Shown here piece by piece: positions 9,119-60,327 of a DNA stretch of 64,000 bases. The position numbers were made by a program, and so were the translations under genes. How positions within the stretch are numbered: position 1 is the first letter of the stretch; each line of letters starts with the position of its first letter. The notes under the pieces are model-generated. The model was not told where the DNA came from. It did not search any database and saw nothing but the letters and a program-made list of their open reading frames with translations. The DNA lies in assembly GCA_016874775.1 (NCBI GenBank), contig VGTJ01000002.1, positions 8,700 to 72,699 on the forward strand, read 5' to 3'. The DNA comes from Deltaproteobacteria bacterium (lineage in GTDB: Bacteria; Desulfobacterota; Binatia; Bin18).

Positions 9119-9202
9119 GGACAGAGCTGAGAAAAAACGTGATGCGTAAAATGTAACCTCTCCCTCCTCTTTTTACGTTTTACGATTTACGTTTTACGGA
9201 TT

Positions 9203-40287: not shown

Positions 40288-43200
40288 ATGATCAAGCTCA
40301 CGGTACAGACCGGAACAGAAACAGGGAAAGAGATCTCCCCCTCAAGCGATCCGATTATTCTCGGACGGAGTAGCACCTGTACGGTCGTGCTCCATGATGC
40401 CGCAGTGTCTCGTCGCCATTCCAGCATTGAACGGCGCGGTAACGACTATATCTTGACCGATCTCCAAAGTGGCAACGGGACGTTTGTCAACTCACAAGGA
40501 ACGCGCATTACCGAGCCCTATACGCTGAAAGACGGCGATGAAATCCTCATCGGGAAAAGTCGTATCCGTGTAGACCTGTCGCTGCAGTCGCAGGAAAGTC
40601 CGGGGCCGCGCAACACTGCCAGTGCAGGACAACCCGCGGCTGCGACAGACGAATCCACTCGTATTGCCCAAGCACCGCCACCGGTCAGCCCAACCCCACC
40701 GGTCAGTCCAACGCCGCCGACTGCAACGGACGGTCTCAATGCCGTTCATCAACCAGACGTGCCGATCGTTGTGACTATCGTTGGTGGCCCAAACCGCGGC
40801 ATGGTTTACTCTCCGGCACGAGAGGTTATTTCCATCGGTCGTGCAACAACATGTGACATTGCCGTCAATGACTCTACCGCTTCTCGGGTGCATGCCACGA
40901 TTAAGCGGGAGGCAGGGAAATACCGCCTGTATGATAACAATAGTGTCAATGGTGTGTATTTAAGCACCCCGCAAACTCGCGTCTATCAAACCGACCTCGC
41001 TGATGGAGATACATTTTTCGTTGGCCAGAACCAATTTCGCGTCGAAATCCATCTTACGCATCCCCCTGTATCCTTAGAAGTTGGCAGTGAAGAAGCCATG
41101 CGCATTACTGGAACCGTCGGCGGCAAAAACTTTACTTTCACCCTGAGCGCGCTCAGCGGCGGCACACGAGCAACGCAGATAGTGCCAACCGATGAAGCAA
41201 CTCGCGTTGCGATGGCACAAAGCAGTACCCCACCTCTTGATGAAGCAACCCGTTTTGTTAGGCAACCTGCGGTTCCACCAAAGCAACCGACGAGCGCGGC
41301 TCCGGCTGGTCCTAAAATTTCCCTACGGGTGATCGAAGGAGCAGATCAAGGGACGGTTTTCACTCCTCTTCCTGGTGTGGAACGTTACACCATCGGTCGT
41401 GGCGAACAAGCAACGTTTCGTCTGCAAGATCGCGGAGCATCACGTATTCACTGCGCAATCGAGATTTCCCCCGCTGGGTTTTTCCTAGTCGATGATGGAA
41501 GCCTGAACGGGACGTTTATCGGACAGAACACCGAGCGTATTACTCGTGTGGCTCTCAAGGGCGGCGAAGAAGTCTTGCTGGCAGACACTCGGTTCAAGGT
41601 TGAGATCACCCTTCCTGAAGGTGCCGCAGCCGCCGCTGAGGGTGCCGATGAAAAGACCTCGTATGTTCCCTATCATGCGCCAACTCCACCAGCCGCAACA
41701 CCGGATGCACCAGTACCTGTGGTCGTTGAGCAGCCCGCCACCGAGAATGTCAGGTCACGTTCGGCGGCGTTCAAAGATCGTTTAGCTATTATCGCTCGGC
41801 AAAGTGGAGTGACGTTACGACCGTTCACAGTTCCCGGCACTCCTCGACAGTGGGCCACATTTGCCTTGATGTTGGTTGCAGCCCTGAGTTCGTATGGCTT
41901 CGCGGTGCTCGGACGGTCTGACTATTTTGCCGGTGGTCCAATTTCAGAAAGTCACGCCAAGCTAGAGAACGGCACCTTTGAACAGCGCTGTACAGCGTGC
42001 CATCCCACTTGGGGTCTTCAACCAGTCAATGCCACCTGCGCCGCCACGGACTGTCACGCTGATGTATTGAAAGTGAGAGACGACCGGCGTGACGATTGCG
42101 TCAGTTGTCATACTGAACACCGAGGCCGGACCTTCGCGATCAAAGGCGGAAAAGAGCAATGTTGGAGTTGTCATGAAGCAGGCATGAACGTCCGTGCGTA
42201 TGCCTCACGTCCGATGGGAGTGTATCACACGCAAGTCTTTTCTGTCGCTGAACAGCTGATCCCACAACCCGGAAAAGTGCCGACGCAAGGGATACAACCG
42301 GCAGCACTCTCCACCGCACGAGAGACCTGGCAGAAAGATTTCTCTGCGCAGCCGACTGGGCTCAAGTATGCACACGCTCTCCACAGCGCGCAGGTGTTAG
42401 AGAAAAACAAGAAGCAGGAGCAATGTTTGGATTGCCACGTCAAGTTATTAGACGGGCAGTTTGCGCCATTCCCCACACATGCTCAGTGTATCGATTGTCA
42501 CAAAGAGGTTGCCAACGTCGATCCCCAGATCGCCAAGAAGAGCGCCTCGAAAGATTGTGAGTTGTGCCACACCCAGGCCGACGGGGGTGTGACCCATGTC
42601 GCACGAAATATCAACTACGTCGTCTTTCAGCATAACGATCATGGGCAAATGCGCTGTGTTCAGTGTCATGCGGTTGTGACAAGCGAGACTGAGTATCGCC
42701 CGGTCCTCCGCTCTTCAGCAGCATATCCGATGCCGATGGACGCCTGCTATTCGTGTCATGAAGAGAAGAAAGTAACGATCGCCTGCTTAGATTGCCATCG
42801 ACAACATCACAGTTATCCATCGACGACCGAATTGGCTTGGGGTTGGTTTGGTGGTCTGTCATTGAACGGCGTGCTTCTTTCTATGCTTGGACTCGTAGGT
42901 GCGACCGGTGCCTATATCTACGCAGACATGCGCCTCGCTCGACGATGGCTGGCGTCATTAGAAACGGCTACGCCACCCCCCGCAAACGAAGCGGCACCAG
43001 CAGCAGCAGGACACGACGGGCATGAGGGAGAAGCGGCACCAGCAGCAGCGGCACCAGCAGCGGCGATCCCACCACCTACTCCGAGTAGTGAGGGAGCCCT
43101 GTACCCCTATCCGACAATTGACTCCGACGCCTGTCTGCCATGCGGTACCTGTTATGACTCATGTCCCGGAAAAGTACTGGCACTGTCTCCAGCGACACAC

Positions 43201-44280
43201 AAGGCTGCGGTTGTCACTCCTGGTGCATGTCGGTCACTCACCGAAGGCTGTACCATTTGTCATGAGAACTGCCCGACCGGCGCGATCCGTATCTCGCCTG
43301 TGCCGATCGTCAGAAAATCTGAACGACCGGATATTGACCCCAACAGCGAAAGTCACAATGTTCCGGGCATCTTTTTGGGCGGAGAAATTCTGGGCAACGC
43401 TCTCATCAAAAAGGTCGTCAATCAGGGCGGACAAATTGTTCGTTACATCGATACTCGTAAACCGCGGATTCCTGAAGCCCAGTACGACGTTATCATCGTC
43501 GGTGCTGGTCCTTGTGGACTCGCTGCCGGTCTCGAAGCCAAACAACGTGGTCTTCGGTACGTGGTGCTTGAACGCGAGAGTTTGGCGAATACGATCCAGA
43601 ACTACCCACGAGATAAAGCCGTGCTCGCCGAACCAGTGCAGATGGCAGTCTACGGCTTGTTACCGATGAAAGATGCAACCAAGGAAGACCTCGTCGCACT
43701 GTGGGAAGACATTGTCCGCAAGGAAAGCTTGCACGTGAATACCCACGAAGAGGTCAGCGAAGTCAAGAAGAACGGCAACGTGATAACCGTCACCACGAAT
43801 AAAGGCACCTATCAGACCGGGTATGTGATTCTCGCCTTAGGTGCGCGGGGCAACCCTCGCAAACTCGGTGCAGCGGGTGAGGATCTTCCTAAAGTATCGT
43901 ATAACCTCAACGACCCTGCAGAATGGCAAGGGAAGCACGTGCTGGCCGTCGGTGGCGGTGACAGCGCCATTGAGGCGGCAGTAGCGATCTCCAAACAGCC
44001 AGGGGCCACGGCGACAATCTCGTATAGAAGCGGGGCTTTCTCGCGCGCGGCAGCACGAAACGTCGAAGCCATTAAAGAACAAGAAAAAGCCGGAAAACTG
44101 AAAGTGTTATTGAATTCTAACGTCACAAAAATCGAAGAGAAACGGGTCTCAATCAAAGCAGGGAACGAAGTCCACGAACTCGACAATGACGCCGTGTTTG
44201 TCCTCATCGGTGCTGATCCACCAAAGGCCTGGCTGGAAAAAATGGGGATAAAATACGTGATTGTTGAGAAAACGATCTAA
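40288..44280 (+). CDS. 1330-aa multidomain fusion protein: three FHA domains, TM helix, periplasmic ~10-haem cytochrome c, TM helix, 2x[4Fe-4S] ferredoxin, FAD/NAD(P)-binding pyridine-nucleotide oxidoreductase
   Basis: The three FHA domains are ILGRSSTCTVVL...SRRHSSI...NGTFVN, ISIGRATTCDIAV...SRVHATI...SVNGVYL and YTIGRGEQATFRL...SRIHCAI...SLNGTFIG. Pro-rich linkers join them (PPVSPTPPVSPTPP). TM1 is WATFALMLVAALSSYGFAVLG. Nine CxxCH motifs plus one Cx4CH (CAATDCH) follow. TM2 is GLSLNGVLLSMLGLVGATGAYIYA. Then come CLPCGTCYDSCP plus C...CTICHENCP, then YDVIIVGAGPCGLAAG and VLAVGGGDSAIEAA Rossmann motifs. The reading frame is uninterrupted throughout. Confidence 0.8.
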   Translation: MIKLTVQTGTETGKEISPSSDPIILGRSSTCTVVLHDAAVSRRHSSIERRGNDYILTDLQSGNGTFVNSQGTRITEPYTLKDGDEILIGKSRIRVDLSLQSQESPGPRNTASAGQPAAATDESTRIAQAPPPVSPTPPVSPTPPTATDGLNAVHQPDVPIVVTIVGGPNRGMVYSPAREVISIGRATTCDIAVNDSTASRVHATIKREAGKYRLYDNNSVNGVYLSTPQTRVYQTDLADGDTFFVGQNQFRVEIHLTHPPVSLEVGSEEAMRITGTVGGKNFTFTLSALSGGTRATQIVPTDEATRVAMAQSSTPPLDEATRFVRQPAVPPKQPTSAAPAGPKISLRVIEGADQGTVFTPLPGVERYTIGRGEQATFRLQDRGASRIHCAIEISPAGFFLVDDGSLNGTFIGQNTERITRVALKGGEEVLLADTRFKVEITLPEGAAAAAEGADEKTSYVPYHAPTPPAATPDAPVPVVVEQPATENVRSRSAAFKDRLAIIARQSGVTLRPFTVPGTPRQWATFALMLVAALSSYGFAVLGRSDYFAGGPISESHAKLENGTFEQRCTACHPTWGLQPVNATCAATDCHADVLKVRDDRRDDCVSCHTEHRGRTFAIKGGKEQCWSCHEAGMNVRAYASRPMGVYHTQVFSVAEQLIPQPGKVPTQGIQPAALSTARETWQKDFSAQPTGLKYAHALHSAQVLEKNKKQEQCLDCHVKLLDGQFAPFPTHAQCIDCHKEVANVDPQIAKKSASKDCELCHTQADGGVTHVARNINYVVFQHNDHGQMRCVQCHAVVTSETEYRPVLRSSAAYPMPMDACYSCHEEKKVTIACLDCHRQHHSYPSTTELAWGWFGGLSLNGVLLSMLGLVGATGAYIYADMRLARRWLASLETATPPPANEAAPAAAGHDGHEGEAAPAAAAPAAAIPPPTPSSEGALYPYPTIDSDACLPCGTCYDSCPGKVLALSPATHKAAVVTPGACRSLTEGCTICHENCPTGAIRISPVPIVRKSERPDIDPNSESHNVPGIFLGGEILGNALIKKVVNQGGQIVRYIDTRKPRIPEAQYDVIIVGAGPCGLAAGLEAKQRGLRYVVLERESLANTIQNYPRDKAVLAEPVQMAVYGLLPMKDATKEDLVALWEDIVRKESLHVNTHEEVSEVKKNGNVITVTTNKGTYQTGYVILALGARGNPRKLGAAGEDLPKVSYNLNDPAEWQGKHVLAVGGGDSAIEAAVAISKQPGATATISYRSGAFSRAAARNVEAIKEQEKAGKLKVLLNSNVTKIEEKRVSIKAGNEVHELDNDAVFVLIGADPPKAWLEKMGIKYVIVEKTI

Positions 44281-44421: not shown

Positions 44422-44919
44422 ATGAACCTGTACCGGATCGCCACTCTTGTTATCGTGCCGTGGTTGGGCCTTTTGACAGCGACATCCTCTTCGTTCGGGG
44501 AAACATCACAGCCTGCTACGGTTATTGCAGCCTCACCAGAACAGGCCCAACAACAAGCTCCATTATTCACCTTTTTGCAGGGCTATTTCTCGTCGTTAGC
44601 CCAAGGCGAGGTGAATAAACTGGCCCAGTACCACCCCACCCTGACGACAGAGCAACTTTCTACTTTGCAAGGCTATTTTTCTCACACGATTCGTGACTTA
44701 CACATCGATGTGCGCAATGTACAAGTCCAGCTCACGGCGAATACCGCTACGGTCTCGTTTTTCCGCACCGATCGTTTTATTGATCGCCTCACAGAACGAC
44801 AGATCGAAAAGAGTATTCAATTGTCGACTGTTCTTGAATATGGTGCAAATGGGTGGCGGCTCGGCGGCCTTGATCAGGTCGCGTTTGCCTTAGTGCCGCG
44901 CACCACTCAGGCGGGGTAG
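44422..44919 (+). CDS. small secreted NTF2-like/SnoaL-like protein, paralogous to the C-terminal domain of the adjacent Ser/Thr kinase
   Basis: The signal peptide is MNLYRIATLVIVPWLGLLTATSS. The core LQGYFSHTIRDLHIDVRNVQVQLTANTATVSFFRTDRFIDR resembles the kinase C-terminus LEGYKSYSVSFRDVSVRNEGNRAVVRFIRVDTIDGK. Confidence 0.5.
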   Translation: MNLYRIATLVIVPWLGLLTATSSSFGETSQPATVIAASPEQAQQQAPLFTFLQGYFSSLAQGEVNKLAQYHPTLTTEQLSTLQGYFSHTIRDLHIDVRNVQVQLTANTATVSFFRTDRFIDRLTERQIEKSIQLSTVLEYGANGWRLGGLDQVAFALVPRTTQAG

Positions 44920-44929
44920 ACAAAAAAGC

Positions 44930-47900
44930 CTATCGCGTGCGAGCAACACGCCCGCCATTACTTTTTTCTAACTTGACTTCTTTCGGTGGCAGGGCAAGAG
45001 TCTTGCCATCTATCGTGTCAACTCGGATGAAGCGGACCACCGCACGGTTCCCTTCGTTGCGGACGCTCACATCCCGGAACGATACACTGTAGCTTTTGTA
45101 CCCCTCCAGGATCCCACGAAGTCTGGTCGCGTCCTGTGCTGAGATTTCGCCGAGCTGCACCAGGGCATCCGTATTTTTGTTTTCCCATGCCGGGCGATAG
45201 ATGGTTTCCAGCCAGTTCATGGCTTCTCTATCACTGGGAGGTCCGGCTTCCTTTGCCCGTTCAGTTTCTTCGCGTTGGACCTTCGCCAATCGTTCCTCTT
45301 CCGCCAGTCTCGCGGCTTCTGCTTTCCGCCGCTCTTCCTCTGCAGCTCTCTGGCGAACGGCCTCTTCTGCTCTGCGCCGTTCCTCTTCCGCTCGTGCAGT
45401 TTTCTCTTGTTCAGCTCTCAAGCGCTCAGCTTCTGCCTTTGCTGCCTTCTCTTGTTCCGCTTTCAACCGATCGGCCTCCGCCTTTGCCGCTTTCTCTTGA
45501 TCCGCCTTGAGCTTTTCAGCTTTGGCTTGTTCGGCTTTCACACGATCGGCTTCCGCTTTTGCCGCCTTTTCTTGTTCAGCTTTGAGTCGTTCCGCCTCGG
45601 CCCGTAGGGTCTTTTCTTGTTCAGCTTTTAGGCGGTCAGCTTCCGCTTTTGCCGCTTTCTCTTGGTCCGCCTTAAGCTTCTCAGCTTTGGCTTGTTCGGC
45701 TTTCACACGATCGGCTTCCGCTTTTGCTGCTTCCGCCTTTCGCCGATCTTCCTCTGCTTTCTGAGCTTTGGCTACTTCTTCAGCTTTGCGGCGATCGTCT
45801 TCTGCCTTTTGGGATTTAGCTACCTCCTCGGCCTTACGACGTTCTTCCTCTGCTTTCAATTGGTCGGCTTTGGCTTGTTCAGCTTTCAGACGCGCCTCTT
45901 CTTCTTGTGCTGCATTCGCTTGGGCGGCCTTTCGGGCTTCTTCCTCCTGCGCCTGCTGAGTCGACGGTTTCTGCGGGTTAACTGACTCTCCTCCTCGGCT
46001 GAAATAAAACCCTAAGGCAGCAACAACGACAAACGCGGCGATACCTGCGACAACTGGCGAAGATTGACGCGCAGGAGAAGGGGCATCCACGGGAACGGGA
46101 CGACTGGTACGCTCGCCTTCCGTTGTTGGCCCCTGATCAAGCAGCGGATGGACTTCTGTTTCTTGCTGCTGCAATGCGGAGAGAAGTGCAGAGGCTTCAT
46201 TATAGCTCGCGAGCGCTTGTGGGTAGCGTTTTTGCTGAAACGACTGATCGCCTGTAGTGATAAACTTCTCAGCTGACTTTTTCTGTTTCCCTTTCGCAGT
46301 CTGCGTTTGTTGTCGCAGCTCGTACGCGCGAGTTCTTGCACCCTCGGCTTCATGCTTTTGCCATGCAACCTCAGACTCTTGGCGAATCTGTTTCCAGCGC
46401 GAAACATTACGGTCAAACTGGTCTCGTGCCGCATCAAACTTTTCGTCGGCAAGCGCCTGCTCTGCCTTATGCAACTCAGACATCGCCTCGACATGTTGAC
46501 CAGGAAGAAATTCTTCACTCCTGACCGCCTGGGCCTCTGCCTGGGCTGCAACGGCCCGTTTCTGCGACTCTGTCGCGGCTTGCTTCGCTCGGGCAAGCCG
46601 GGCAATTCCCAATGCCTGACCAAACAACTCTCCTGCTTGCGCTGAGAGCGTAACCGATTCCTCGAATTGCTTTGCAGCTAACGCAGCCTCCGCCTGCTCT
46701 CGCACTTCCTGTGCTTGTCGATAGAGGTCTGCAGCATATTGTGGAGCATGCACGGCGTCAGCTTCGCGTTGACGTCCTTTCGCTTCTTGATTAGCCAAGA
46801 GGGCACGTTGCTGCTGCTCCTCTACTTCAGCTTCAGCTTGCGCGTACTCATAGATCTGTGCAGCCTGCGCATAATGCGCGCGGGCTTGCTCATACGCCTG
46901 TGCCTGCCACGCTTTCTCACCTTCGGTCTCGGAGGTTTGCGCTTCTTTCCACCGGGCTGCGGCAAAACGAGGAGCTAGGGTGCTGGCCGCTTGTTTTGCC
47001 TGTGCGGCTTGCTGCCGCACAACATCGGCCTCTTCCTGAGCAATTTGTTGCTGCACCGCCTGAACGAGCTTGATAAACTGTTGTTGCGCTTGTTCGTAAT
47101 TCTGGCGGGCTGTAGTGAAGTCATCTTTTTTTTGCGCAGCCTGGCCACGTTCGAAAAGTCCTCGAACCTGAGCAAACTCGCGCGGGAAACGTTGCTCGGC
47201 AGAACTCTGGGTTGCGGCAGATCCTGCTTCTTCTGCACGTTGCAGAGCAGCAAGCATTTCCTGCTTAGCGTACTCATGCTGTGCCGTACCCTTCGCCTGC
47301 ACAAAGAGTTCTTCTGCGTGGCGATACTCACGTGTAGCTTGACTAAATTTTTGCTGTCGTTGGTGGCGACTCGCTTCATCGAGAGCCGCCGCCGCCTGGT
47401 TAAAATCCGTGGCCGCATAGCGTGGGGCATCAACTTCTTCGGCTTGCTTCTTCGCAGTACCAGCCTGTTTTTCTGCCGCAGCGGTTTCTTGTCGGAGTCG
47501 TTCCTGTTCTCCTGCTGTCGCTGCCGTCGTGTATAACTGCGCCGTCTGTGTGTACTGCGCCAGTGCGTTTTCGTAGTCTTGGTCTGAGAACGCTCGCTCG
47601 GCATCGGCTTCTTGCTTCTGCGCGGCCTCCCATTGTGCGTTGGCCCATTGTTTCAGCTCACTCGCGTTCTCTTTCGCCTGCAGCATCTGTTGGCGCGCCG
47701 CTGCAGCGTCTTCGCGTGCAGCCTCAACGTCTGCGTCACGACGAAGACGCAACAGTTGCTGACGAGCCTGTTCGTATAAATCACTCGCTTGGGAGAAGTC
47801 TTGTTGTGTTTCCGCTTGTTGTCCCCGGACAACTACCTGTTGAGCACGAGCAAACTCTTGTGCGAAGCGTGAGTGGACTGCCGCTTCAGTGGCTGCAACC

Positions 47901-50900
47901 TGAGCAGCTTCCAATCGCTGACGCAGGGCAATGACAGCCTGCCGCGCTCTTTCTTGTTGTGCATCGTGCGCAGCTTGTGACCACAGTGACCGTGCTTGTG
48001 CAAACGCTTGGCTGGCATCGTTCCAGTGCTGGGCGTGCATCTGTTGTTCGGCCTGTTGAGCAGTCTGCGCCCCTTGCTGAAAGAGCGCCGTAGCGTACCT
48101 TTCCGCCTCAGCTCGTTGCGCTTCAGCGCGAGCTTCTTCCGCTTGTTGCTGCGCATCGAGTGCGCGGCGTCGCTGCCGCTCGATCTCAGCTGCGTGTCGA
48201 GCCTTCTCGGCCTCTGTTCGCGCTTCTATGTAACGTTGCGTGACGCGATCATACGCTTCTGCTGCTTTCGCATACTGCTGGGCTTCCCAGGCGGCGTTCG
48301 CTTCAGCTTCTGTTCGTTCCGCGTCAGCCCATTTCGCTCCGCGCCATTCAGTGAGCCCCGCCAATCCATTCCTAGATTCAGCCGCACGTTTCCGTGCGGC
48401 TTCCGCCTTTTCCTTCTCAGCTTGCCGAAAGGCTTCGCCCCCAAGACGCTCCCAGAGTTGACGTGCTTGCTGATAGGCCTCGCTTGCCTGAGAGAAATTC
48501 TCTTGCGTTTCCGCTTGGGCCGCTTGCTCAACAAGGTGTGAGGCTTTAGCAAAATCCGTGGCAAAGCGTTGTGCAGCCCCGGACTTCTCGGCAATCTGCC
48601 GTGCTTCCGTTGTACGTTGTCGAGCGCTTACGGCTTCCTGTCTGTGACGTTCCCGTTGCGCATCGTCAGCAGCTTTCGCCAGCAGCTCTGCCGCGCGCCA
48701 ATAGCGTTGAATCGCCGCCCGCAATTCTTTGGTGCGAATCTGTTTTTCAGCGTCGCTCAGTGCAGCAAGCCCATCGCGCCACAACTCAGCAGCGTAACGC
48801 GTTGCTTCGCGTTGTTCAGCGCGCGTTTTTGCAGACTGCGCTTGCTGCTGTGCATCACGGACTTCCTGTTGTAATTGTTCTTGCTCAGCGTTAGTGCGTG
48901 CTTGGGTATAAGCCTTCGCAGCCTGAGTGTAGAGATCCGTAGCACTGCGATATTCTTGCTTCTGGTAGGCCTGGTCCGCACGCTGCACACGTTCACGCGC
49001 CTGCGCCCAGTTCTCCTTAGCCCAGGCCTGCAGGGGCTCACTCCCCTGCACCACTTCTGCCATTTTCTGCCGCGCGGTATCAGCCTGCTCACGGGCAGCA
49101 AGCACGGCACATTCACGCGCGAGTTGTTGAAAGCGCTGGGCGGCCTCTGTATAGCGGTGGCGAGATTCGCGATATTGCTCTCGCTTTTCGTGCTCTTGTC
49201 CCTCGGCAACCAAGCGTTGAATCTGTTGGTAGGAGGAAGCCGCGCGTTCCTTTGCTTCCGCTTGGTCAGCTTGCACTTGGGCTTGTTGCAGCTGTTGCCG
49301 GACTGCAGCAGTAGCCTGTCGATCTTGTTCGGTAGCGGCTTCTTGGGTGGCTTGCTCATAGCGATCGCGCGCCTGCAGATACGCCTGCTTGGCCTTGTCA
49401 TACGCCTTCGCTTGCAACTGCGTGTCACCTTGCTTCTGGAACAAGGTAGCTTGCTGATACAACGGAGAGGCAAGATCGCGCGCCTGCGCGTCTTCAGCTT
49501 GACGCTGTGCTTCTTTGGCTTGTTGTTGGACGGCGACGGTTTCTAACCGTTGCTGTTCATTGACTGCCTCTTGTTGCGCACGCTCATATTTTTGCGCAGC
49601 AGCAAGATATAACTCACGCGCTTGGGTAAATTCTTCATGCGTGATTGCTGCACTTGCCCGTTGTTCTTGATCTGCAGCTTCACGAAAGAGGTTAGCGGCA
49701 AGTCGTGTCGCACCTTGCTCTTCCGCCGCCGCTTTTGCAGCGGTCGCCCGCGCATGCGCTTTCTCTGCTTCGTCTTTTAGGGTCTCACGGTACGCTTGCT
49801 CGCGAGCATCAGCGAAGGAACGTGCAGCTTCACTATAGCCGTGCGCCGCGTGCTGAAAATCACCTTTCTCAAGAAATTCATCAGCTTGCGATTCCAGGGT
49901 GAGGGCACGCGCGTATCGCGTGCGCGCGTGCCCTCGTGCGCCGTAGTGCTCAGCCTCTTCCTTGGCGGCGGCCATGTTACCCCGTGCCTGCTCGGCTTTC
50001 CGTTTGGCTGCTGCGGTTTGCGCTTCTGCGGCTGCCTGGGTGAAGATCTGGATGGCCTCATCGAATGCTTGTTGAGCTGCGGTAAAGTCCTTGTCCCGTA
50101 AGCTCTTCGCACCGTGTCCTTCCGCCGTCATTCCTTGCTGAAGCAAGGTGGCAGCCCATTCTGACGCACCGTCACGAGTCGCGCGTTCGCGTGCCTCACG
50201 CGCTTGCGTCTGGAGCGACAAAATACGACGACGCTCCCGTTCTTCTTCAAGTTTGCGGATCTGGTCTTCGATATCGTCGTCAGCCTGTGCCTCTTGCTTT
50301 TTCTCTTCTTTTTTTCCCAGCCCAGAGAGAATCAGCGTACCGGTGTCTTCTCCATCAGCGCTCAAATTCCGACAGCTCTCTAGCGCTTGCAGTAGTTCCC
50401 GCATGCTGTGGTAGCGATGGGCACGATTTTTCGCGATCGCCCGCGTCAACAGGTCAGCAAACGCGGCAGGCGTTGGGCGATCAAAGTGCGGCTCGTTCTC
50501 TTTGGTATCGTACAAGACCTTGCCCAGCACGGCATGTTCATCGAGCCCGCCGAAGAATTGCCTACCGGTGCACATCTCATACATCACCATACCCAGCGAA
50601 TAGACATCCGCTCCACCGTCAAGCTGCTCATGGCGCAGTTGCTCAGGCGAGGCATATTTCAAGGTCCCGATCACCATGCCGGTCTTGGTGGAATCGCCAT
50701 CGCCCAGTTCCTTGGCGATGCCAAAGTCCATCACCACCACGCGTGACGAATGGTCCTCAATCATGATGTTGGCGGGTTTGATGTCACGATGGATGATCGG
50801 CGGGGTATGGCCGTGGGCATAGCCTAGGGCTTCAGCGACCTGGCGCGAGATACGCAGAATTTCCGGCAGCGGCAACGGGCCTTTTTCACGGATGTATTTT

Positions 50901-51199
50901 CCAAGCGTCACCCCCTCGATGTACTCCATGACAAAGTAGTAGAGGTTCAGAGTCTCATCGCGCTCGATATCAAGGACACGAACGATATTGGGATGGTTAA
51001 GCCGAGCCATGACGCGCGCTTCCCGATAGAAGCGGTTCACCATGTCTTCGTTTTCCATCAAATACGCAGGCAGGACCTTGAGGGCAGAGATGGTGTCGAG
51101 GGCGGTGTGGCGAACTTTATACACCAGCCCCATGCCACCTTGACCCAGTTGGCCAACAACCTCGTACTTGCGGGAAATCACCATCGGCTTAGTTGCCAT
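44930..51199 (-). CDS. giant (2089-aa) Hanks-type Ser/Thr protein kinase: N-terminal kinase domain, a ~1100-aa degenerate helical repeat region, TM helix, a ~300-aa K/E/A-rich TolA-like spacer, C-terminal NTF2-like domain
   Basis: The kinase domain has GQGGMGLVYKV, the K in ALKVL, HRDIKPANIMI, DFGIAKE and GTLKYASPEQ. Repeated W..A..W...Y..A..Y and RFA.EFA blocks follow. The TM helix is VVAGIAAFVVVAALGFYF. Then come KAEQEKAAKAEADRLKAEQ repeats, and then the NTF2-like domain. Confidence 0.9.
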   Translation of the reverse strand: MATKPMVISRKYEVVGQLGQGGMGLVYKVRHTALDTISALKVLPAYLMENEDMVNRFYREARVMARLNHPNIVRVLDIERDETLNLYYFVMEYIEGVTLGKYIREKGPLPLPEILRISRQVAEALGYAHGHTPPIIHRDIKPANIMIEDHSSRVVVMDFGIAKELGDGDSTKTGMVIGTLKYASPEQLRHEQLDGGADVYSLGMVMYEMCTGRQFFGGLDEHAVLGKVLYDTKENEPHFDRPTPAAFADLLTRAIAKNRAHRYHSMRELLQALESCRNLSADGEDTGTLILSGLGKKEEKKQEAQADDDIEDQIRKLEEERERRRILSLQTQAREARERATRDGASEWAATLLQQGMTAEGHGAKSLRDKDFTAAQQAFDEAIQIFTQAAAEAQTAAAKRKAEQARGNMAAAKEEAEHYGARGHARTRYARALTLESQADEFLEKGDFQHAAHGYSEAARSFADAREQAYRETLKDEAEKAHARATAAKAAAEEQGATRLAANLFREAADQEQRASAAITHEEFTQARELYLAAAQKYERAQQEAVNEQQRLETVAVQQQAKEAQRQAEDAQARDLASPLYQQATLFQKQGDTQLQAKAYDKAKQAYLQARDRYEQATQEAATEQDRQATAAVRQQLQQAQVQADQAEAKERAASSYQQIQRLVAEGQEHEKREQYRESRHRYTEAAQRFQQLARECAVLAAREQADTARQKMAEVVQGSEPLQAWAKENWAQARERVQRADQAYQKQEYRSATDLYTQAAKAYTQARTNAEQEQLQQEVRDAQQQAQSAKTRAEQREATRYAAELWRDGLAALSDAEKQIRTKELRAAIQRYWRAAELLAKAADDAQRERHRQEAVSARQRTTEARQIAEKSGAAQRFATDFAKASHLVEQAAQAETQENFSQASEAYQQARQLWERLGGEAFRQAEKEKAEAARKRAAESRNGLAGLTEWRGAKWADAERTEAEANAAWEAQQYAKAAEAYDRVTQRYIEARTEAEKARHAAEIERQRRRALDAQQQAEEARAEAQRAEAERYATALFQQGAQTAQQAEQQMHAQHWNDASQAFAQARSLWSQAAHDAQQERARQAVIALRQRLEAAQVAATEAAVHSRFAQEFARAQQVVVRGQQAETQQDFSQASDLYEQARQQLLRLRRDADVEAAREDAAAARQQMLQAKENASELKQWANAQWEAAQKQEADAERAFSDQDYENALAQYTQTAQLYTTAATAGEQERLRQETAAAEKQAGTAKKQAEEVDAPRYAATDFNQAAAALDEASRHQRQQKFSQATREYRHAEELFVQAKGTAQHEYAKQEMLAALQRAEEAGSAATQSSAEQRFPREFAQVRGLFERGQAAQKKDDFTTARQNYEQAQQQFIKLVQAVQQQIAQEEADVVRQQAAQAKQAASTLAPRFAAARWKEAQTSETEGEKAWQAQAYEQARAHYAQAAQIYEYAQAEAEVEEQQQRALLANQEAKGRQREADAVHAPQYAADLYRQAQEVREQAEAALAAKQFEESVTLSAQAGELFGQALGIARLARAKQAATESQKRAVAAQAEAQAVRSEEFLPGQHVEAMSELHKAEQALADEKFDAARDQFDRNVSRWKQIRQESEVAWQKHEAEGARTRAYELRQQTQTAKGKQKKSAEKFITTGDQSFQQKRYPQALASYNEASALLSALQQQETEVHPLLDQGPTTEGERTSRPVPVDAPSPARQSSPVVAGIAAFVVVAALGFYFSRGGESVNPQKPSTQQAQEEEARKAAQANAAQEEEARLKAEQAKADQLKAEEERRKAEEVAKSQKAEDDRRKAEEVAKAQKAEEDRRKAEAAKAEADRVKAEQAKAEKLKADQEKAAKAEADRLKAEQEKTLRAEAERLKAEQEKAAKAEADRVKAEQAKAEKLKADQEKAAKAEADRLKAEQEKAAKAEAERLRAEQEKTARAEEERRRAEEAVRQRAAEEERRKAEAARLAEEERLAKVQREETERAKEAGPPSDREAMNWLETIYRPAWENKNTDALVQLGEISAQDATRLRGILEGYKSYSVSFRDVSVRNEGNRAVVRFIRVDTIDGKTLALPPKEVKLEKSNGGRVARTR
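45420..45770. repeat. near-identical in-frame tandem DNA repeats (165-bp period with ~82-bp sub-period) inside the kinase gene
   Basis: The unit starting TCAGCTTTGGCTTGTTCGGCTTTCACACGATCGGCTTCCGCTTTTGCCGC at 45516 recurs at 45681 with only 1-2 mismatches. The repeats encode the duplicated ...AKAEADRVKAEQAKAEKLKADQEKAAKAEADRLKAEQEK... segment. Confidence 0.7.
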
Positions 51200-51214: not shown

Positions 51215-52000
51215 TTAGCCAGCTACGGTTGGATCTTCAATGTACGACAGAATGATGATCGTACTGTTATCTCGGCCCCCACGTTCATTGGCGAGATTGA
51301 CCAGCGCATCACACGATTTTTCGAAATCTGGAGCGGTCTCGTTAATGATACGAAGCATGTCGCTATCTTCAACCACCCCATGAATCCCGTCACTACACAA
51401 GAGGTAAATATCTCCGGATTGGGGCCGTTCGAGCCGCACTGAAGGTTGGACAAGTGGACTCACCCCAACGGCTTGTGTCAACACATGACGGTGCGGAAAT
51501 GTCTTGACTTCTGTTGGTCCGATTTTGCCTTCACGGAGTAACTGCTGCACAAGCGAATGATCTTCCGTGAGGAGCTCAATCGTACCATCACGAACGCGAT
51601 AGACGCGAGAATCGCCAACATGACAAATCCCGGCAACGCTTTCGTGCTCATCAAACAAGACAGCAGCCACCGTTGTCCCCATGCCATTGAGGGCCGGGTC
51701 CTGCTGGCTCATCTCGAAAACTTTGTTATTTGCTCCCTGGATTGCGAGGAAAAGACGACGACCAGCGACCGACGACCAGCCATTCTCGGTTGTGATGGGC
51801 GTCAGATCTTCTCCCTCAGTTTCCTGGAGAACCCCATGCATCGTTTCTACAGCTAAGGCACTTGCGCGCTCTCCCCCGAGATGCCCCCCCATCCCATCCG
51901 CCACGATATAAAACGCCGCCTCGGGAAAGAATCCGGAGGAGTCCTCGTTTTTCACACGCACCTTACCCGTGTCGGTTTTAACTGCGCCACAGATGGACAC
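51215..52000 (-). CDS. PP2C-family Ser/Thr protein phosphatase
   Basis: It uses a GTG start with AAGGAG RBS. VKTDTGKVRVKNEDS...ADGMGGHLGGERAS is the PP2C metal-binding motif set. It ends 15 nt upstream of the kinase gene on the same strand, in the PstP-PknB-like arrangement. Confidence 0.85.
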   Translation of the reverse strand: MSICGAVKTDTGKVRVKNEDSSGFFPEAAFYIVADGMGGHLGGERASALAVETMHGVLQETEGEDLTPITTENGWSSVAGRRLFLAIQGANNKVFEMSQQDPALNGMGTTVAAVLFDEHESVAGICHVGDSRVYRVRDGTIELLTEDHSLVQQLLREGKIGPTEVKTFPHRHVLTQAVGVSPLVQPSVRLERPQSGDIYLLCSDGIHGVVEDSDMLRIINETAPDFEKSCDALVNLANERGGRDNSTIIILSYIEDPTVAG

Positions 52001-52228: not shown

Positions 52229-53752
52229 CTACACTGTGGAGCTTTGGCTTCTATCTTCTCTACCGTCAAACGTATACCCCATCCCCCCAGATGGAATAAA
52301 ATCAGCCCGGAAGCCATCGTCATTAAGAGGCATAATAGCGCCAAAAAAGATTGACCCCGAGACCCCCAACACGTAACGCAGACCAAAAGAGATGTCGATG
52401 ACATCATTGCGTTTGAACTTAAAGGGAAAACGGAAGGGAGGGCTGTCGCCGAGGGTACAGGGGTTCGCTTGTGAGCACGATGAAGCCGGACGGGAGAGAG
52501 AAAATCCGGCAAGCCCACTGCCTTTGCCAGGTTGCAGCCGACCAAAATCGCTCCTGCCAATAATATCGATCCCCGCGCCGAGCCGTTTCCATACAAGCGC
52601 GGCAACACCGACAGAGTAGAGGAATGCACTGCGATCCATATTCTTAGTGTTAAAATCCACCCCCAGATTCACATGTGGTTCAATGCGATCCCACATCACT
52701 TGCGACAAATAAATAAACGGGCTTACGTGCGTTTCACCGGTACCATGAAAGTTGTCCTCGTCTCCACTCGGGAGGCGCAGTTCCAAGCCCGCTGCGGCAC
52801 CACCTTGTTCCCCACCCCAGAGCCGGTATTTCGTTCGCAGCGAAATATCACCGACCCCGGTCGCACTTCCCGCCACCTTGGTTAATGTTCGTCGTCCGCG
52901 ATTGGCAGCAAAAAAGCGGGCTTGGGTCAGGTCAACTGGTTGGAGAGAAGAATTGAGTAACGCAAGGTTGACATTCCCTTGTCGGTCGACATTCGACACG
53001 AGAAACGCATCGGCCGTTATAGCTACGGGAATGAGATCATGGCGCACCCGTAAGAAGGTATTCACTATGGGGATAGAAATGCCAACGTCCCAGTTCTCCG
53101 TGAGTCCGTAGCGGAAGGTAGGCACGGCCAGATGCGTCTGAATATGCATCCGGGTGCGGACCGAAGAAAGTCCAAGGGCAGCAATCCTCAGCAACGATCC
53201 ATCATCGAGAAATCGCCCGCACAGTGGATCAAGGAACAACGGCAATCCAGCCGTAGATGGGCAAAACGCTTCGAGCAGTAATGGACTACGCTTGTTCTGC
53301 AAGCTCCCGCCGTTGACGTCATCCAAACCGACATAGGAATAGCCAATACCGAAGTTGAGTTGCCCTTTCCCAAGGGTGAGCGCGCGCTCGCTAAAAAGGG
53401 GACCAGGCACACTGGTGGAGCGTTCAAACACACTCAACGAGGGGATGTAACGATAACTGAAAGCAGGGGCAACTGACGCCAGTGGGGATTGTTGCGTCAC
53501 AGCTTGCGCAACTGCAGCGGAAAGCGCTGGAGCTAACCCCTGCCCTGCGGTGGAGAAGGCAAAAAAATCCGCCCTTCCATCAGCGGCAGTAGGGAATACC
53601 AGGTTCGTAATCAGGAGTGGATTTCGTGGAATCAGATCAAACCCTTCACCGAGCACCGTTGTTAAGTTGCGTGCCTCACTCCGCGACCACGCCCCCCACG
53701 CAACTATTTGCACCACAATGAGAACGATCACACAGCGGTTGAAACATTTCAT
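52229..53752 (-). CDS. outer-membrane beta-barrel protein candidate, paralogue of 54205..55584
   Basis: GGAGG RBS precedes the ATG at 53752. The signal peptide is MKCFNRCVIVLIVVQIVAWGAWS. The sequence has alternating amphipathic strands and is aromatic-rich with Phe/Tyr near the C-terminus. The block SVFERSTSVPGPLFSERALTLGKGQLNFGIGYSY also occurs in the divergent neighbour. Confidence 0.5.
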   Translation of the reverse strand: MKCFNRCVIVLIVVQIVAWGAWSRSEARNLTTVLGEGFDLIPRNPLLITNLVFPTAADGRADFFAFSTAGQGLAPALSAAVAQAVTQQSPLASVAPAFSYRYIPSLSVFERSTSVPGPLFSERALTLGKGQLNFGIGYSYVGLDDVNGGSLQNKRSPLLLEAFCPSTAGLPLFLDPLCGRFLDDGSLLRIAALGLSSVRTRMHIQTHLAVPTFRYGLTENWDVGISIPIVNTFLRVRHDLIPVAITADAFLVSNVDRQGNVNLALLNSSLQPVDLTQARFFAANRGRRTLTKVAGSATGVGDISLRTKYRLWGGEQGGAAAGLELRLPSGDEDNFHGTGETHVSPFIYLSQVMWDRIEPHVNLGVDFNTKNMDRSAFLYSVGVAALVWKRLGAGIDIIGRSDFGRLQPGKGSGLAGFSLSRPASSCSQANPCTLGDSPPFRFPFKFKRNDVIDISFGLRYVLGVSGSIFFGAIMPLNDDGFRADFIPSGGMGYTFDGREDRSQSSTV

Positions 53753-53805
53753 ACGATTGCACCTCCAGAGAAGACTCACATTCCCCGCACTCAATCAGAA
53801 CAGCA

Positions 53806-53914: not shown

Positions 53915-54204
53915 GCATACCCCCTGTTTCGATTTTCGCGAGCCCAACATAAGCGTAATCAAACTGTATAATCCCCTTCGTCAAGAAGAAAGGTCGTACC
54001 GCACACGATAGGGCTACGTCAATCGGTAGAGTTTGTGTGGAATTTTTATGGATTTTTCTTGTATAGCCAAATACTCTTGACGGTAGGAACGTAAGTAGGA
54101 TAGTTACAGGAAGTTACTCACTCGGGGTGCCATTCGCCTTCGCTCGACAATTTTGTTACGATCACATCCTGTTGCGCCGTCTGCCGTTTGGAAGGAGGAG
54201 GAGC

Positions 54205-55584
54205 ATGAAGAAAATACTGTTGGCTATCGGGGTGGTGCTCGGCGCTGTACTTCTCACCGCTCCGGCGTTTGCTCGCAACTTACGGTCCTCATTGGAGAAC
54301 TCCCTCTTTGGTGGCTCACAATCGATTTTTCTTACTGTTCGCAACCAGGCATTTTTCACTGGTTCTGATTTGCCCGACTCGCTCGTATTACTTTCGGCGG
54401 ACCGCAACTCCAAAAGTTTTGGTCGACCGATCCAAACTGCAGGCCCTGGCGGTATCGCCCGCCTTTTTTCGCGCGGCTTGAGCGGAAACATCCTCACTGA
54501 GAGTGCAGTAATTCCGCTTCCCTCTGGGAGTGCGGGTTTTGAATATACGTTTAACCCGACCTTGAGTGTGTTCGAGCGGAGTTCGATTGGACTCGGTGCC
54601 ATCTTTAGTGAGCGCGTGAATACCCTCGGGAAAGGGGTGTTCGCTTTTGGAGTCTCTTATGTTCGACAAGACTTCGACACCTTCAACGGACAGCCATTGT
54701 CGCGATTACAGTTAAATAACAAGCTGTTTCCTGGTCAAGATTCCCTCGGCCCCTTTTTAGACACCGGCATTGTCCAAGGACAAGTCAATCTCAAGGTCAA
54801 AACCAATTCCGTCGCTATCTACGGCATTTACGGGATCACCGATTGGATCGATGTGAGCCTCTTACTACCACTCACGGAGATCTCGTTACGCGCGAGGTCG
54901 ACACTGCAGCAGGGCAGTCAGACACTCCGAGATGACTTTGCAGCGTTCCTGCCAGATCCACGGTGCGGCATCGATCGCGCCAAAGCCAACCAATGCCGCA
55001 TTTCTGATTTTATTATTCTCCGTGGCTCACCAAGGGAAGGCGTGGGTACTCGTTTTTCATTCCTTCAACGGACCCAGCGCAACACCGTCGATAAGAGCCG
55101 CTTTGGGGTGGGAGATTTGCTGATCCGAGCAAAAGCGCGGTTGCTGGACAGTTACTGGGGATCATTCGGGAGTTTAGCCGAGCTGACTTTTCCTACTGGG
55201 AATAAGAACAATTTTCTTGGCGACGATGCCTTCAAAGCGCGCTTTTTGATCCTCTATTCGAAGAACTTGTTTGCCAATCGCCTCAATTTTCATCTCAACG
55301 GTGGTGGAAAGATTACAACCCAATCATCCAACAAAAACACGCTCGAATACGCTACTGCCGTCGATTTCATGGTTACGCCTCGCTTCTCGTTAGTAGCAGA
55401 AATGTTGGGTTCGTGGCGTGTGGACCCGGAAGGATTGCCGCGTCATTTCTTGGATGGAGCCTTTGGTTTTAAGGTGAATCCGTTTGCGGGTCTCATCCTC
55501 AACGCCAGCTTCCGTCTTCCCGTTACCAATGACGGACTCCGCTCCGATCTCGTCTATCTGGCGGGATTGGAGTACGACTTTTAA
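54205..55584 (+). CDS. outer-membrane beta-barrel protein candidate, paralogue of 52229..53752
   Basis: GGAGGAGGA RBS precedes the ATG at 54205. The signal peptide is MKKILLAIGVVLGAVLLTAPAFA. The C-terminal ...YLAGLEYDF ends in Phe, a classic OMP beta-signal. The shared block is SVFERSSIGLGAIFSERVNTLGKGVFAFGVSY. Confidence 0.55.
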   Translation: MKKILLAIGVVLGAVLLTAPAFARNLRSSLENSLFGGSQSIFLTVRNQAFFTGSDLPDSLVLLSADRNSKSFGRPIQTAGPGGIARLFSRGLSGNILTESAVIPLPSGSAGFEYTFNPTLSVFERSSIGLGAIFSERVNTLGKGVFAFGVSYVRQDFDTFNGQPLSRLQLNNKLFPGQDSLGPFLDTGIVQGQVNLKVKTNSVAIYGIYGITDWIDVSLLLPLTEISLRARSTLQQGSQTLRDDFAAFLPDPRCGIDRAKANQCRISDFIILRGSPREGVGTRFSFLQRTQRNTVDKSRFGVGDLLIRAKARLLDSYWGSFGSLAELTFPTGNKNNFLGDDAFKARFLILYSKNLFANRLNFHLNGGGKITTQSSNKNTLEYATAVDFMVTPRFSLVAEMLGSWRVDPEGLPRHFLDGAFGFKVNPFAGLILNASFRLPVTNDGLRSDLVYLAGLEYDF

Positions 55585-58686: not shown

Positions 58687-58894
58687 TTCGTTCGCCTCGT
58701 TTCATAAAATTCCATAAAAATTCTCAGAAGGGAAACCGAAAGCCACGAGACTTTTTGCACGCAGGATGATAGGAGCTGGAAGCGCTAGAGAAAAAGAGCT
58801 GTTGACCCTTGCATCACGGATTGTATTTGTGTGACAATCTTCCCCAGGGGGCTGCTCATCACTACCTGTCGTCGCTTCTGTGCAGCAATGGAAT

Positions 58895-60160: not shown

Positions 60161-60327
60161 TAAGCGCAAGAGTTCACGGAACACTTTCGACTCTTCATTC
60201 TCGACAACCACACTTCAGGCAATTCCCTGAGTGCTCCACAGGCCGAGTTGACCGACTTTACGACAGTTCACCACTTGTGCTACTCTACGTTGATCAGCGC
60301 ATCGGGTGGGTAGGAAGGACAACACGT

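Follow-up and report, generated by a model that had tools for sequence, protein, structure and literature searches.

A 2089-residue Hanks-type kinase with a long helical rod and an NTF2-type C-terminal domain, and the small paralogue encoded convergently beside it

The locus

We analyzed a 64,000-nucleotide stretch of contig VGTJ01000002.1 (GenBank assembly GCA_016874775.1; "the window"), whose central feature is a gene for a 2089-residue protein kinase (44930-51199, minus strand). The source is an uncultured soil bacterium, and homologues of the protein carry the label Candidatus Binatia. The gene is a single uninterrupted open reading frame, and an exact-sequence look-up identified its product as GenBank entry MBM4254393.1 ("hypothetical protein FJ147_00685"), from a metagenome-assembled genome (MAG) labelled "Deltaproteobacteria". 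From the N terminus to the C terminus, the protein has a Hanks-type kinase domain, a long helical rod, one transmembrane (TM) helix, a spacer rich in lysine, glutamate and alanine (K/E/A), and a domain of the NTF2 type. A small gene that converges on the kinase gene encodes a second, free copy of this last domain. The neighbouring genes include a protein phosphatase of the PP2C type, two outer-membrane β-barrels, and a membrane redox protein with three FHA domains. We will describe the parts of the kinase and its small neighbour, then the wider family, the barrels and the other neighbours, and finally how the system might work.

The kinase domain

The kinase domain (residues 12-271; 50387-51166, minus strand), which we place in the cytoplasm, matches Pfam's Pkinase family (PF00069) with 172.6 bits against a cut-off of 31.7 (E = 1.4e-50). 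In the translation, we could identify by eye the glycine-rich loop GQGGMG (18-23), K41, E59, HRD (136-138), N143, DFG (157-159), and SPE (in place of APE). Because all of the Hanks catalytic motifs are present, the domain looks catalytically competent. An earlier description of this DNA, made from the letters alone (the sequence-only reading), had proposed a canonical Hanks kinase domain within an unusual architecture. The Pfam match and the full motif set bear out the first part. As to the second, only two close relatives turned up when 185,579 species genomes were scanned for the pattern of this architecture, which is thus rare. The name of MBM4254393.1 in GenBank is still only "hypothetical protein", despite a kinase domain at E = 1e-50.

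When we compared the entire kinase and the small protein to Pfam and NCBIfam, the kinase domain was the sole match. The NCBIfam model for PASTA-type kinases (PknB_PASTA_kin / Stk1, NF033483) matches residues 5-401 with E = 5.7e-88. However, the score of 296.3 bits lies below the cut-off of 450, and there is no match to PASTA, so we do not consider the protein to be a member of the Stk1/PknB family. Like PknB and Stk1, it has the kinase with its juxtamembrane region (the part modelled by NF033483), crosses the membrane with one TM helix, and ends in an extracytoplasmic sensor. For the PknB/Stk1 family, dimerisation is the accepted mode of activation. In contrast to PknB, which has a short linker between the kinase and the membrane and then PASTA repeats, the kinase from the window has a rod of 1350 amino acids and no PASTA repeats.

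The C-terminal domain

The end of the kinase (residues 1989-2089; 44933-45235, minus strand) is assigned to the NTF2-like type, related to SnoaL_3 and DUF4440, from a structural model, structure comparisons, and a family profile, and it would lie in the periplasm. An AlphaFold2 (AF2) model of the C-terminal 103 amino acids, built from an alignment of 28 sequences, had a pLDDT of 93.7 and a pTM of 0.83. The model has three helices (4-20, 24-29, and 35-46) followed by four strands (51-63, 66-77, 80-93, and 99-101). Almost all of the 50 PDB matches listed by Foldseek are NTF2-like (probability 0.97-1.0); they include SnoaL2, polyketide cyclases, ketosteroid isomerase, the CaMKII hub, and designed NTF2s, as well as the accessory NTF2 domains of Bd1075, Pgp2, Csd6, and PBP2a/PBP5. 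The E values are about 1e-3, the query-normalised TM-scores (TMq) are 0.36-0.62, and the identities are 8-16%. The domain is thus predicted to have the fold of the NTF2-like superfamily, in agreement with the sequence-only reading, which had named it NTF2/SnoaL-like.

At the level of sequence, neither the kinase nor the small protein matches SnoaL_3 (PF13474) or DUF4440 (PF14534) in Pfam at E values up to 1, and PDB sequence searches with either NTF2 copy alone returned nothing meaningful. Among 56 complete family members of 280-1000 amino acids (the set that we also use to count heads below), 37 match SnoaL_3 (best E = 1.9e-8) and 20 match DUF4440. Also, one homologue of the small protein (P0022) bears a precomputed match to PF13474. 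Membership of the window's two copies in these families is thus indirect, by way of their relatives. A word-indexed search with the C-terminal 120 amino acids gave 3 matches and missed the query protein itself; an exhaustive profile search and scans of loci were the productive routes. Compared with SnoaL_3 and DUF4440 domains, including the accessory domains of the L,D-carboxypeptidases Bd1075, Pgp2 and Csd6, the kinase's domain has the same fold and is short (about 95 amino acids). Its place is at the extracytoplasmic end of single-pass signalling proteins, and we found no description in the literature of a SnoaL_3-type domain in that place.

These structural matches are relevant to two alternative views of what the domain does. 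First, the NTF2, SnoaL and ketosteroid isomerase folds, which were top matches, typically hold hydrophobic ligands in a deep pocket. The domain could be a sensor for a small molecule: a barrel would import a hydrophobic or aromatic compound, the free NTF2 protein would take it up in a cone-shaped pocket and shuttle it to the NTF2 domain of the kinase, and ligand occupancy would govern the kinase's output, much as periplasmic binding proteins feed chemoreceptors. A specific ligand would also be in keeping with the family's FTRxD strand motif, in which the arginine and the aspartate never vary. However, the domain in the kinase is minimal, with just four strands, and its pocket may be too shallow. 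We consider this explanation unlikely, for this and other reasons given below.

Second, the domain might be an anchor and not a sensor. It would bind peptidoglycan or the barrel and so fix the protein in the envelope, and the protein would be a structural tether, that is, a spectrin-like rod beneath the membrane that is tied to the wall and localises the enzyme head. The NTF2 domains of Pgp2 and Bd1075 reportedly bind peptidoglycan or guide localisation. The highest listed TM-scores (0.57-0.62) do include the periplasmic peptidoglycan enzymes Bd1075 and Csd6 along with the NTF2 domains of PBP5 and PBP2a, and Pgp2 is in the list with a TMq of 0.50. At such E values and identities, though, the similarity is at the level of the fold and is silent on the ligand. 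This is the more doubtful of the two ideas, and we think it quite improbable that the domain is just an anchor.

A free, secreted paralogue

The small gene (44422-44919, plus strand) encodes 165 amino acids, and its stop codon is 10 nt from that of the kinase gene. The protein has a putative signal peptide at about residues 1-26, with a hydrophobic N terminus and no lipobox cysteine, and an NTF2 region at about residues 47-160. It has 54 homologues at 47-82% identity, so by its sequence it appears to be a conserved secreted protein.

By BLASTP, the small protein is similar to the NTF2 domain of the kinase (E = 1e-4, 32% identity over 66 amino acids). A profile-profile comparison (hhalign) aligned essentially the entire domain (82 columns, E = 4.5e-5, probability 69%). 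Furthermore, a joint MAFFT alignment of both copies is collinear, and they have an F.R.D strand motif in common. The two domains are thus true paralogues. The sequence-only reading had noticed a convergent signal-peptide protein with the same fold-level motif, and profile methods do detect the similarity.

The pairing of the two genes is conserved. In every locus of the Binatia clade that has DNA there (about 15 distinct loci), a convergent small gene directly adjoins the gene with the NTF2 end, and across all related loci with DNA past the end of the large gene there is one exception. The gap between the two genes is about 10-30 nt. The pairing persists where the head of the large protein is a TIR domain (locus L004; our numbers for related loci begin with L) or is a kinase without a rod (L019). 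A scan for promoters and terminators around the convergent gene ends found nothing beyond chance. The sequence-only reading had offered three roles for the small protein, as a ligand-binding, decoy, or partner module. The conserved pairing, including in the TIR and rod-less variants, strengthens the view that it may be a partner module, whether as a ligand carrier, a decoy or a structural partner. If the NTF2 domain of the kinase were an anchor, the tail-to-tail retention of a free secreted paralogue would be left unexplained.

The membrane helix and the periplasmic spacer

The kinase has a single predicted TM helix at about residues 1712-1736 (45992-46066, minus strand). The maximum of the Kyte-Doolittle hydropathy (19-residue window) is 2.3, at residues 1716-1734, and there is no comparable peak elsewhere in the protein; homologues carry a TM helix at the equivalent position. 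The single membrane pass of the sequence-only reading thus holds.

The helix is followed by a spacer (residues 1746-1985; 45245-45964, minus strand), which is probably helical and periplasmic and is rich in K, E, A and R. The stretch from residue 1746 to residue 1990 (about 245 amino acids) is 27% A, 23% E, 15% K, and 11% R. It contains tandem repeats of 45 and 48 nt, as identified by Tandem Repeats Finder (TRF), which correspond to units of 15 and 16 amino acids. Residues 1734-1990 have no match in Pfam.

The type of spacer varies between loci. It is K/E/A-rich in the window, L001 and L003 and P/S/K-rich in L004 and L019. In L008, L009 and L013, it is proline-rich (PEPPKPE) with three domains of the PKD/Ig-like type, and the remainder of the protein is collinear. 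The spacer is just 27-51% identical between orthologues, as compared to 59-67% for the rod and the NTF2 domain. Thus, the type of spacer is interchangeable among orthologues, and the substitution of proline-rich and PKD/Ig-like sequence agrees with the earlier proposal of a spacer that spans the periplasm. The kinase head at one end, the signal peptide of the paralogue, and the PKD domains in the orthologous spacers imply that the N terminus is inside and the C terminus is outside. In L009 (8783-10001), a frame change and an in-frame stop near 9125 interrupt the orthologous kinase after the TM region and before the PKD/NTF2 part; this is either an assembly error or a split gene.

The spacer resembles domain II of TolA and the spacer of TonB, as the kinase also has a long low-complexity stretch after a single N-in TM helix, and this stretch would bring a small domain at the C terminus closer to the outer membrane. 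The spacer in the window is of the K/E/A helical type, as in TolA, and orthologues have the Pro-Glu/Pro-Lys type, as in TonB. This likeness is one of composition and position only, as low-complexity sequence yields no usable alignment. The terminal domains differ (TolA-III or the TonB C-terminal domain (CTD) instead of an NTF2-like domain), and we found no genes for TolQR/ExbBD-type motors among the neighbouring proteins that we scanned.

The helical rod

Between the kinase domain and the membrane lies a rod of 18 tandem units of 76 amino acids (residues 345-1690; 46130-50167, minus strand), which we delineated with a self-trained hidden Markov model (HMM) and an AF2 model and which would be cytoplasmic. 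When we compared fragments of the repeat region to the whole by BLASTP, the offsets were multiples of about 76 amino acids (76, 152, 226-233, 302, 380, 459 ... 912), with the strongest at 226-233 and 459 (E down to 8e-19). Fragment queries were required, as a self-comparison of the undivided region returned the identity match alone. An HMM that was iterated on the kinase found 18 full units at residues 353-1637 (i-Evalues of 1e-10 to 1e-19 each) and partial units at 300-341 and 1642-1682, and a truncated unit closes the array at 1632-1690. The consensus is A.RYA..lf.qA......A..A....q.F.qA...Y.QA.qlf..A..eA..E...q.A..A.q.A..A.

The repeat region thus extends over about 1350-1390 amino acids, and not over about 1100 in roughly eight degenerate repeats of about 130, as the sequence-only reading had it. 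From residue 723 on, the last 12 full units form four triplets of about 228 amino acids, each with a W-type, an RYA-type and an RFA-type unit. This accounts for the motifs W..A..W and RFA.EFA that were quoted earlier: they are real and lie at the beginning of two of the three types of unit.

We modelled six units (residues 1029-1492) with AF2, using an alignment of 17 paralogous and homologous segments (pLDDT of 94.2). In the model, one pattern recurs six times: a four-residue helical turn, a 19-residue helix, a three-residue loop, and a helix of 45-47 residues. The modelled unit has the three-helix-bundle fold of PDB 4fm3 (DUF4398, PF14346). Because the 93 aligned residues are more than one 76-residue unit, a bundle would combine the short helix with halves of two long helices, the C-terminal half of the preceding one and the N-terminal half of the following one. 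In the model, the bundles would be chained as in spectrin, with each long helix continuing into the next bundle; if straight, the rod would measure about 60-70 nm.

We considered other families for the rod. By sequence, the two units that come closest to DUF4398 reach 12.5 bits (E = 0.21) and 9.1 bits (E = 2.5), below its threshold of 27.9 bits, so we do not assign them to that family; these sub-threshold matches span profile positions 12-77 of 78. The MIT profile gives E = 0.014 with a single unit, and the profile of the rod unit gives about 2e-3 with the MIT domains of VPS4. The same profile matches the TPR motifs of Hop with a summed E of 1.2e-8 (best single stretch, i-E = 0.024). This likeness is confined to the first 35-40 positions of the unit (Pfam TPR_11, E = 0.16), and the 76-residue period and the 45-47-residue second helix rule out a TPR solenoid; nor is any TPR protein among the top structural matches of the rod. 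With the six-unit model as the query, Foldseek found no significant match in the PDB (best E = 0.57). A word-indexed search for homologues with 464 amino acids of the rod gave at least 3 matches, and low-complexity candidates dominated.

The rods of orthologues share 59-66% identity and align along 1346 amino acids with 0-1 gapped positions. For comparison, the kinase domain is 85-87% identical and the NTF2 domain is 61-67% identical. Within its clade, then, the rod matches the sensor domain in conservation and lacks insertions and deletions. Because of this conservation, the rod is most likely a rigid ruler or a scaffold that positions the head and may dock partners, and not a floppy linker. 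A strictly conserved length is also what would be expected of a structural element, and it favours the idea of a tether between an NTF2 anchor and the cytoplasmic head. There is a precedent for a membrane-anchored, spectrin-like scaffold in EzrA, which consists of five linear triple-helical-bundle repeats (PMC4243239). The N-terminal domain of BB0323 has also been placed in the spectrin-repeat family (PMC12758692). The rod differs from these known proteins in several ways. EzrA has 5 repeats and the kinase has 18; a spectrin repeat is about 106 amino acids, as opposed to 76, and we detected no sequence similarity to it; and the DUF4398 protein PA2901 (PDB 4fm3) is a single chain of 95 residues, while the rod is an 18-fold tandem array in the cytoplasm.

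NTF2-type ends on other signalling proteins

To define the wider family, we searched 1.84 billion cluster representatives exhaustively, using a profile from a joint alignment of both NTF2 copies. This identified 490 cluster representatives at E values up to 1e-3, including 135 at up to 1e-10. The NTF2 domain is nearly always at the extreme C terminus. Seed searches among the best 146 of the 490 members recovered 11 kinases whose rods have 2-18 units, 9 rod-less kinases, 7 TIR proteins, and 3 AAA proteins. Among the 56 complete members, the heads that Pfam identifies are Pkinase (8), TIR_2 (7), Peptidase_C14 (7), Guanylate_cyc (6), CHAT (4), and AAA_22 (2). The NTF2 module is thus a widespread C-terminal end of varied single-pass signalling proteins. 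The sequence-only reading had overlooked this, as well as the PP2C gene, the triple-FHA redox protein, and the conserved barrel genes.

Several loci illustrate how the heads are exchanged. In L004 (7029-11186, minus strand), and also in L005, a 1385-residue protein has an N-terminal TIR_2 domain followed by the same 76-residue rod units, one TM helix, and, in L004, a P/S/K-rich spacer and the same NTF2 end; there, the small paralogue is convergent and a barrel gene is upstream, with no PP2C. In L019 (2-1210), a kinase is joined directly to the TM helix, spacer, and NTF2 domain, with no rod. In L020 (909-2807), an AAA ATPase similar to ExeA/GspA is followed by a TM helix, a PKD-like domain, and the NTF2 domain, with no free paralogue. 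Thus, the cytoplasmic head is interchangeable, and the free paralogue and the barrel stay with the NTF2-ended gene after a head swap.

These heads bear on both of the alternatives introduced above. TIR, caspase, and CHAT domains would be unusual outputs for nutrient sensing, and most of the family lacks the free paralogue that would carry the ligand, which argues against the import and delivery of a compound. On the other hand, ExeA carries a peptidoglycan-binding domain at its C-terminal position, and in L020 and P0116 it is the NTF2 domain that ends the ExeA/GspA-like AAA_22 protein at this position, as would be expected if it were an anchor.

We also noticed that caspase-SnoaL_3 and CHAT-cyclase-SnoaL_3 genes have homologous, divergent upstream neighbours (L022, 4893-5822, and L024, 4934-5908, both on the minus strand). 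These encode proteins of 309 and 324 amino acids, respectively, that are 35% identical. In L024, the next gene (4071-4937, minus strand) encodes a zf-HC2 protein, which is anti-sigma-like. The upstream neighbour may be a transcriptional arm of the caspase and CHAT variants.

Outer-membrane barrels

Upstream of the kinase, the window encodes two putative, paralogous outer-membrane β-barrels with signal peptides, side by side and divergent. The first (52229-53794, minus strand) is of the Phenol_MetA_deg type (Pfam E = 1.4e-8), and its true start is probably the methionine 14 codons downstream of the listed start codon. The second (54127-55584, plus strand) ends in ...YDF and was identified by its similarity to the first (BLASTP, 27% identity, E = 1e-24) and by its sequence features. 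The first alone passes the Pfam threshold, and its match is limited to profile positions 63-149 of 242; both are about twice as long as the Pfam model.

A homologue of these barrels is encoded near the NTF2-ended gene in 10 of the 11 informative loci, which cover seven head types; for the other, L008, there was none within the fetched stretch. In L001/L016 and L009 (kinases with rods), in L019 (the rod-less kinase), and in the P0170 locus (a kinase), the barrel homologue adjoins; in L009, it is the orthologue of the window's second barrel and adjoins the PP2C gene. In L004 (TIR with a rod), the barrel homologue lies immediately upstream of the small gene. In L020 (AAA), it is directly convergent, and in L021 (TIR-SnoaL_3), it is convergent. 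In L022/L023 (caspase-SnoaL_3), the barrel is the next gene in the operon (E = 5.5e-52 against our barrel HMM), and in L025/L026 (CHAT-SnoaL_3), it is in the same operon (E = 1.6e-68). The linkage to a barrel is the most general feature of the NTF2-ended system. We also considered a third conserved partner of about 500-550 amino acids near the barrels in L021, L022 and L025 and rejected it, as those proteins have no detectable similarity.

The name of the Phenol_MetA_deg family reflects annotations in the context of aromatic compounds, and the Binatota have been described as degraders of alkanes and methylated compounds (PMC8262859). Both would fit with a barrel that imports a hydrophobic ligand for the NTF2 domains. 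However, no catabolic genes for such compounds adjoin the locus.

Phosphatase, FHA redox protein, and other neighbours

A gene for a PP2C-type serine/threonine phosphatase (51215-52000, minus strand; Pfam PP2C_2, E = 8.5e-12) lies 15 nt upstream of the kinase gene and on the same strand, so the two genes probably form an operon. A PP2C that is 87-91% identical is directly upstream of the kinase in L001, L008, L009 and L016.

On the other side, the small gene begins 142 nt downstream, and on the same strand, of a gene for a 1330-residue redox protein (40288-44280, plus strand), whose features we located by Pfam and by the positions of its CXXCH motifs and TM helices. Three FHA domains come first, followed by a TM helix, nine CXXCH haem motifs, another TM helix, a ferredoxin-like 4Fe-4S dicluster region, and a pyridine-nucleotide-disulfide oxidoreductase domain. 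This FHA gene adjoins the small gene in five loci of the kinase clade (L003, L006, L009, L015 and L018). Because FHA domains bind phosphothreonine, this protein is probably a phosphothreonine reader or a substrate of the kinase. The paired kinase and PP2C genes, along with an FHA reader, point to regulated signalling, and not to a mere tether. Upstream of the FHA gene are genes for a protein with two cyclic-nucleotide-binding (cNMP) domains and 4Fe-4S motifs (37602-39170) and for a protein with at least 4 TM helices (39194-40267). The string as a whole resembles a transmembrane electron conduit that is regulated by phosphothreonine and by cyclic nucleotides, which is unusual in itself.

This arrangement raises another possibility, which is that the small gene belongs functionally to the FHA/cytochrome redox operon and that its adjacency to the kinase is incidental. 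The cNMP-Fer4/4-TM/FHA-redox string recurs with the small gene in L003, L009, L015 and L018, and in L006/L007 it does so with no kinase within 7 kb. However, in L004 and L019 a barrel gene, and not an FHA gene, is upstream of the small gene, and the NTF2-ended gene is still convergent. Incidental adjacency would also leave unexplained the sequence paralogy of the small protein to the terminal domain of the kinase, as well as the retention of the pairing with a TIR head. We consider it very improbable.

Further out, the window encodes pentose-phosphate genes, a multihaem cytochrome, and an M10 protease. The protease gene (56452-58617, plus strand) encodes 721 amino acids with an M10 (matrixin) peptidase domain and a dockerin domain. 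It is followed by genes for a 426-residue multihaem cytochrome of the c3/c7 type (58880-60160, plus strand) and for an HbpS-like protein (60277-62022). A search of PADLOC-DB 2.0 did not identify a known anti-phage defence system: there were only generic matches to the kinase (PD-T4-6, mad6), TIR, and caspase domains, and nothing for the small protein or the barrels.

A proposed mechanism

We propose that the 2089-residue protein is a trans-envelope receptor kinase that is activated by induced proximity, and we would give this proposal about an even chance of being correct. The spacer, which would be about 35 nm long as one continuous helix, would carry the NTF2 domain across the periplasm to the zone of the outer membrane and the peptidoglycan, where it would pair with the free paralogue and/or the barrel. 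NTF2 domains commonly serve as modules for dimerisation or oligomerisation. A change in the pairing, due to a ligand, the loss of a partner, or damage to the envelope, would shift the oligomeric state of the NTF2 ends, and this would draw the cytoplasmic heads together and switch them on. The rod would serve as a stiff scaffold or ruler, holding the head in position and perhaps docking partners, the PP2C would reset the kinase's signal, and the triple-FHA redox protein would read the phosphothreonine.

Two considerations lead us to favour induced proximity. Every type of head on this module is one that responds to dimerisation or oligomerisation, as is established for Hanks kinases, TIR domains, caspases and class III cyclases and presumed for AAA_22. 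And allostery over more than 100 nm is implausible.

Several points weigh against the proposal. The signal would have to pass along a spacer of about 35 nm, the TM helix, and a rod of 60-70 nm; with allosteric transmission being implausible over such a path, proximity coupling would also be weak unless the rods pair along their length. The length and straightness of the rod are themselves deduced from the secondary structure of the model. The copy number of the rod varies from 0 to 18 units among homologues, and because many family members have no rod, it is not needed for the basic logic of signalling. The free paralogue is absent from the distant family loci that we examined and is therefore a clade-specific addition that lies outside the core of the system. 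For the NTF2 heterodimer and the barrel contacts, the evidence is gene neighbourhood. In L006, the small gene follows the FHA gene and there is no kinase within 7 kb. Finally, the adjacency of the FHA gene is limited to fairly close relatives and could be plain synteny.

Relationship to known systems

Bacterial receptor serine/threonine kinases are known mainly with sensors of the PASTA, PknD and PpkA types. The last of these invites comparison with the locus as a whole. In Pseudomonas aeruginosa, PpkA, PppA and Fha1, together with TagQRST, form the threonine phosphorylation pathway of the H1 type VI secretion system (H1-T6SS). In both PpkA's system and the locus in the window, a Hanks kinase of the inner membrane that bears a periplasmic domain is accompanied by a cognate PP2C, an FHA protein, a periplasmic accessory protein and an outer-membrane component, and both would relay signals from the envelope inward. 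However, PpkA's periplasmic domain is of the von Willebrand A (vWA) type and its outer-membrane component is the lipoprotein TagQ, in place of the NTF2 domain and the barrel. PpkA has neither a helical rod nor a paralogous free sensor domain, and the FHA protein in the window is a membrane redox enzyme. We found no type VI secretion family among the 26 neighbouring proteins that we scanned, and no vWA match, so we do not place the locus in the PpkA/PppA/Fha1 pathway.

Each part of the system has a known counterpart: the Hanks kinase, PP2C and FHA proteins; the DUF4398 fold and spectrin-like chaining; the TolA/TonB-like spacer; and the SnoaL_3-type NTF2 domain. We searched the literature for the domain combination, DUF4398, Phenol_MetA_deg, and kinases of the Binatota. 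In the searchable literature, we found no description of the whole assembly, the 18-unit rod, or the free paralogue, and none of the coupling of an NTF2-ended single-pass protein with swappable heads to a Phenol_MetA_deg-type barrel. The kinase itself may best be viewed as a variant of the receptor serine/threonine kinases, and the wider NTF2 module may be a class of its own.

Implications

The NTF2 (SnoaL_3-type) module adds to the known extracytoplasmic sensors of bacterial receptor kinases. The rod offers a first architectural role for the DUF4398 fold, and with 18 units it would rank among the longest spectrin-like arrays described in a bacterium. The neighbouring triple-FHA protein, with its haem, iron-sulfur and flavin modules, hints that the output might be the direct phospho-control of an electron-transfer conduit.

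The combination of interchangeable heads with one family of barrels is a pattern that usually marks a common mechanism of input. More tentatively, since we hold it to be somewhat doubtful, NTF2-ended proteins and their cognate Phenol_MetA_deg-type barrels might form a widespread class of receptors for envelope surveillance, in which a periplasmic NTF2 module switches heads that are activated by proximity. If so, the module would report the state of the outer membrane or the periplasm (damage, phage attack, or a transported ligand), and the heads that it switches would be a kinase, a TIR NADase, a caspase or CHAT protease, or a cyclase, which would make the class a bacterial counterpart of death-receptor-type signalling. 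To this, the Binatia version would add a free paralogue of the NTF2 domain and a spectrin-like rod of about 65 nm whose length is conserved. Should the module prove to be an envelope sensor that works by induced proximity, it would give a testable handle on how diderm bacteria couple events at the outer membrane to cytoplasmic signalling or cell-death effectors.

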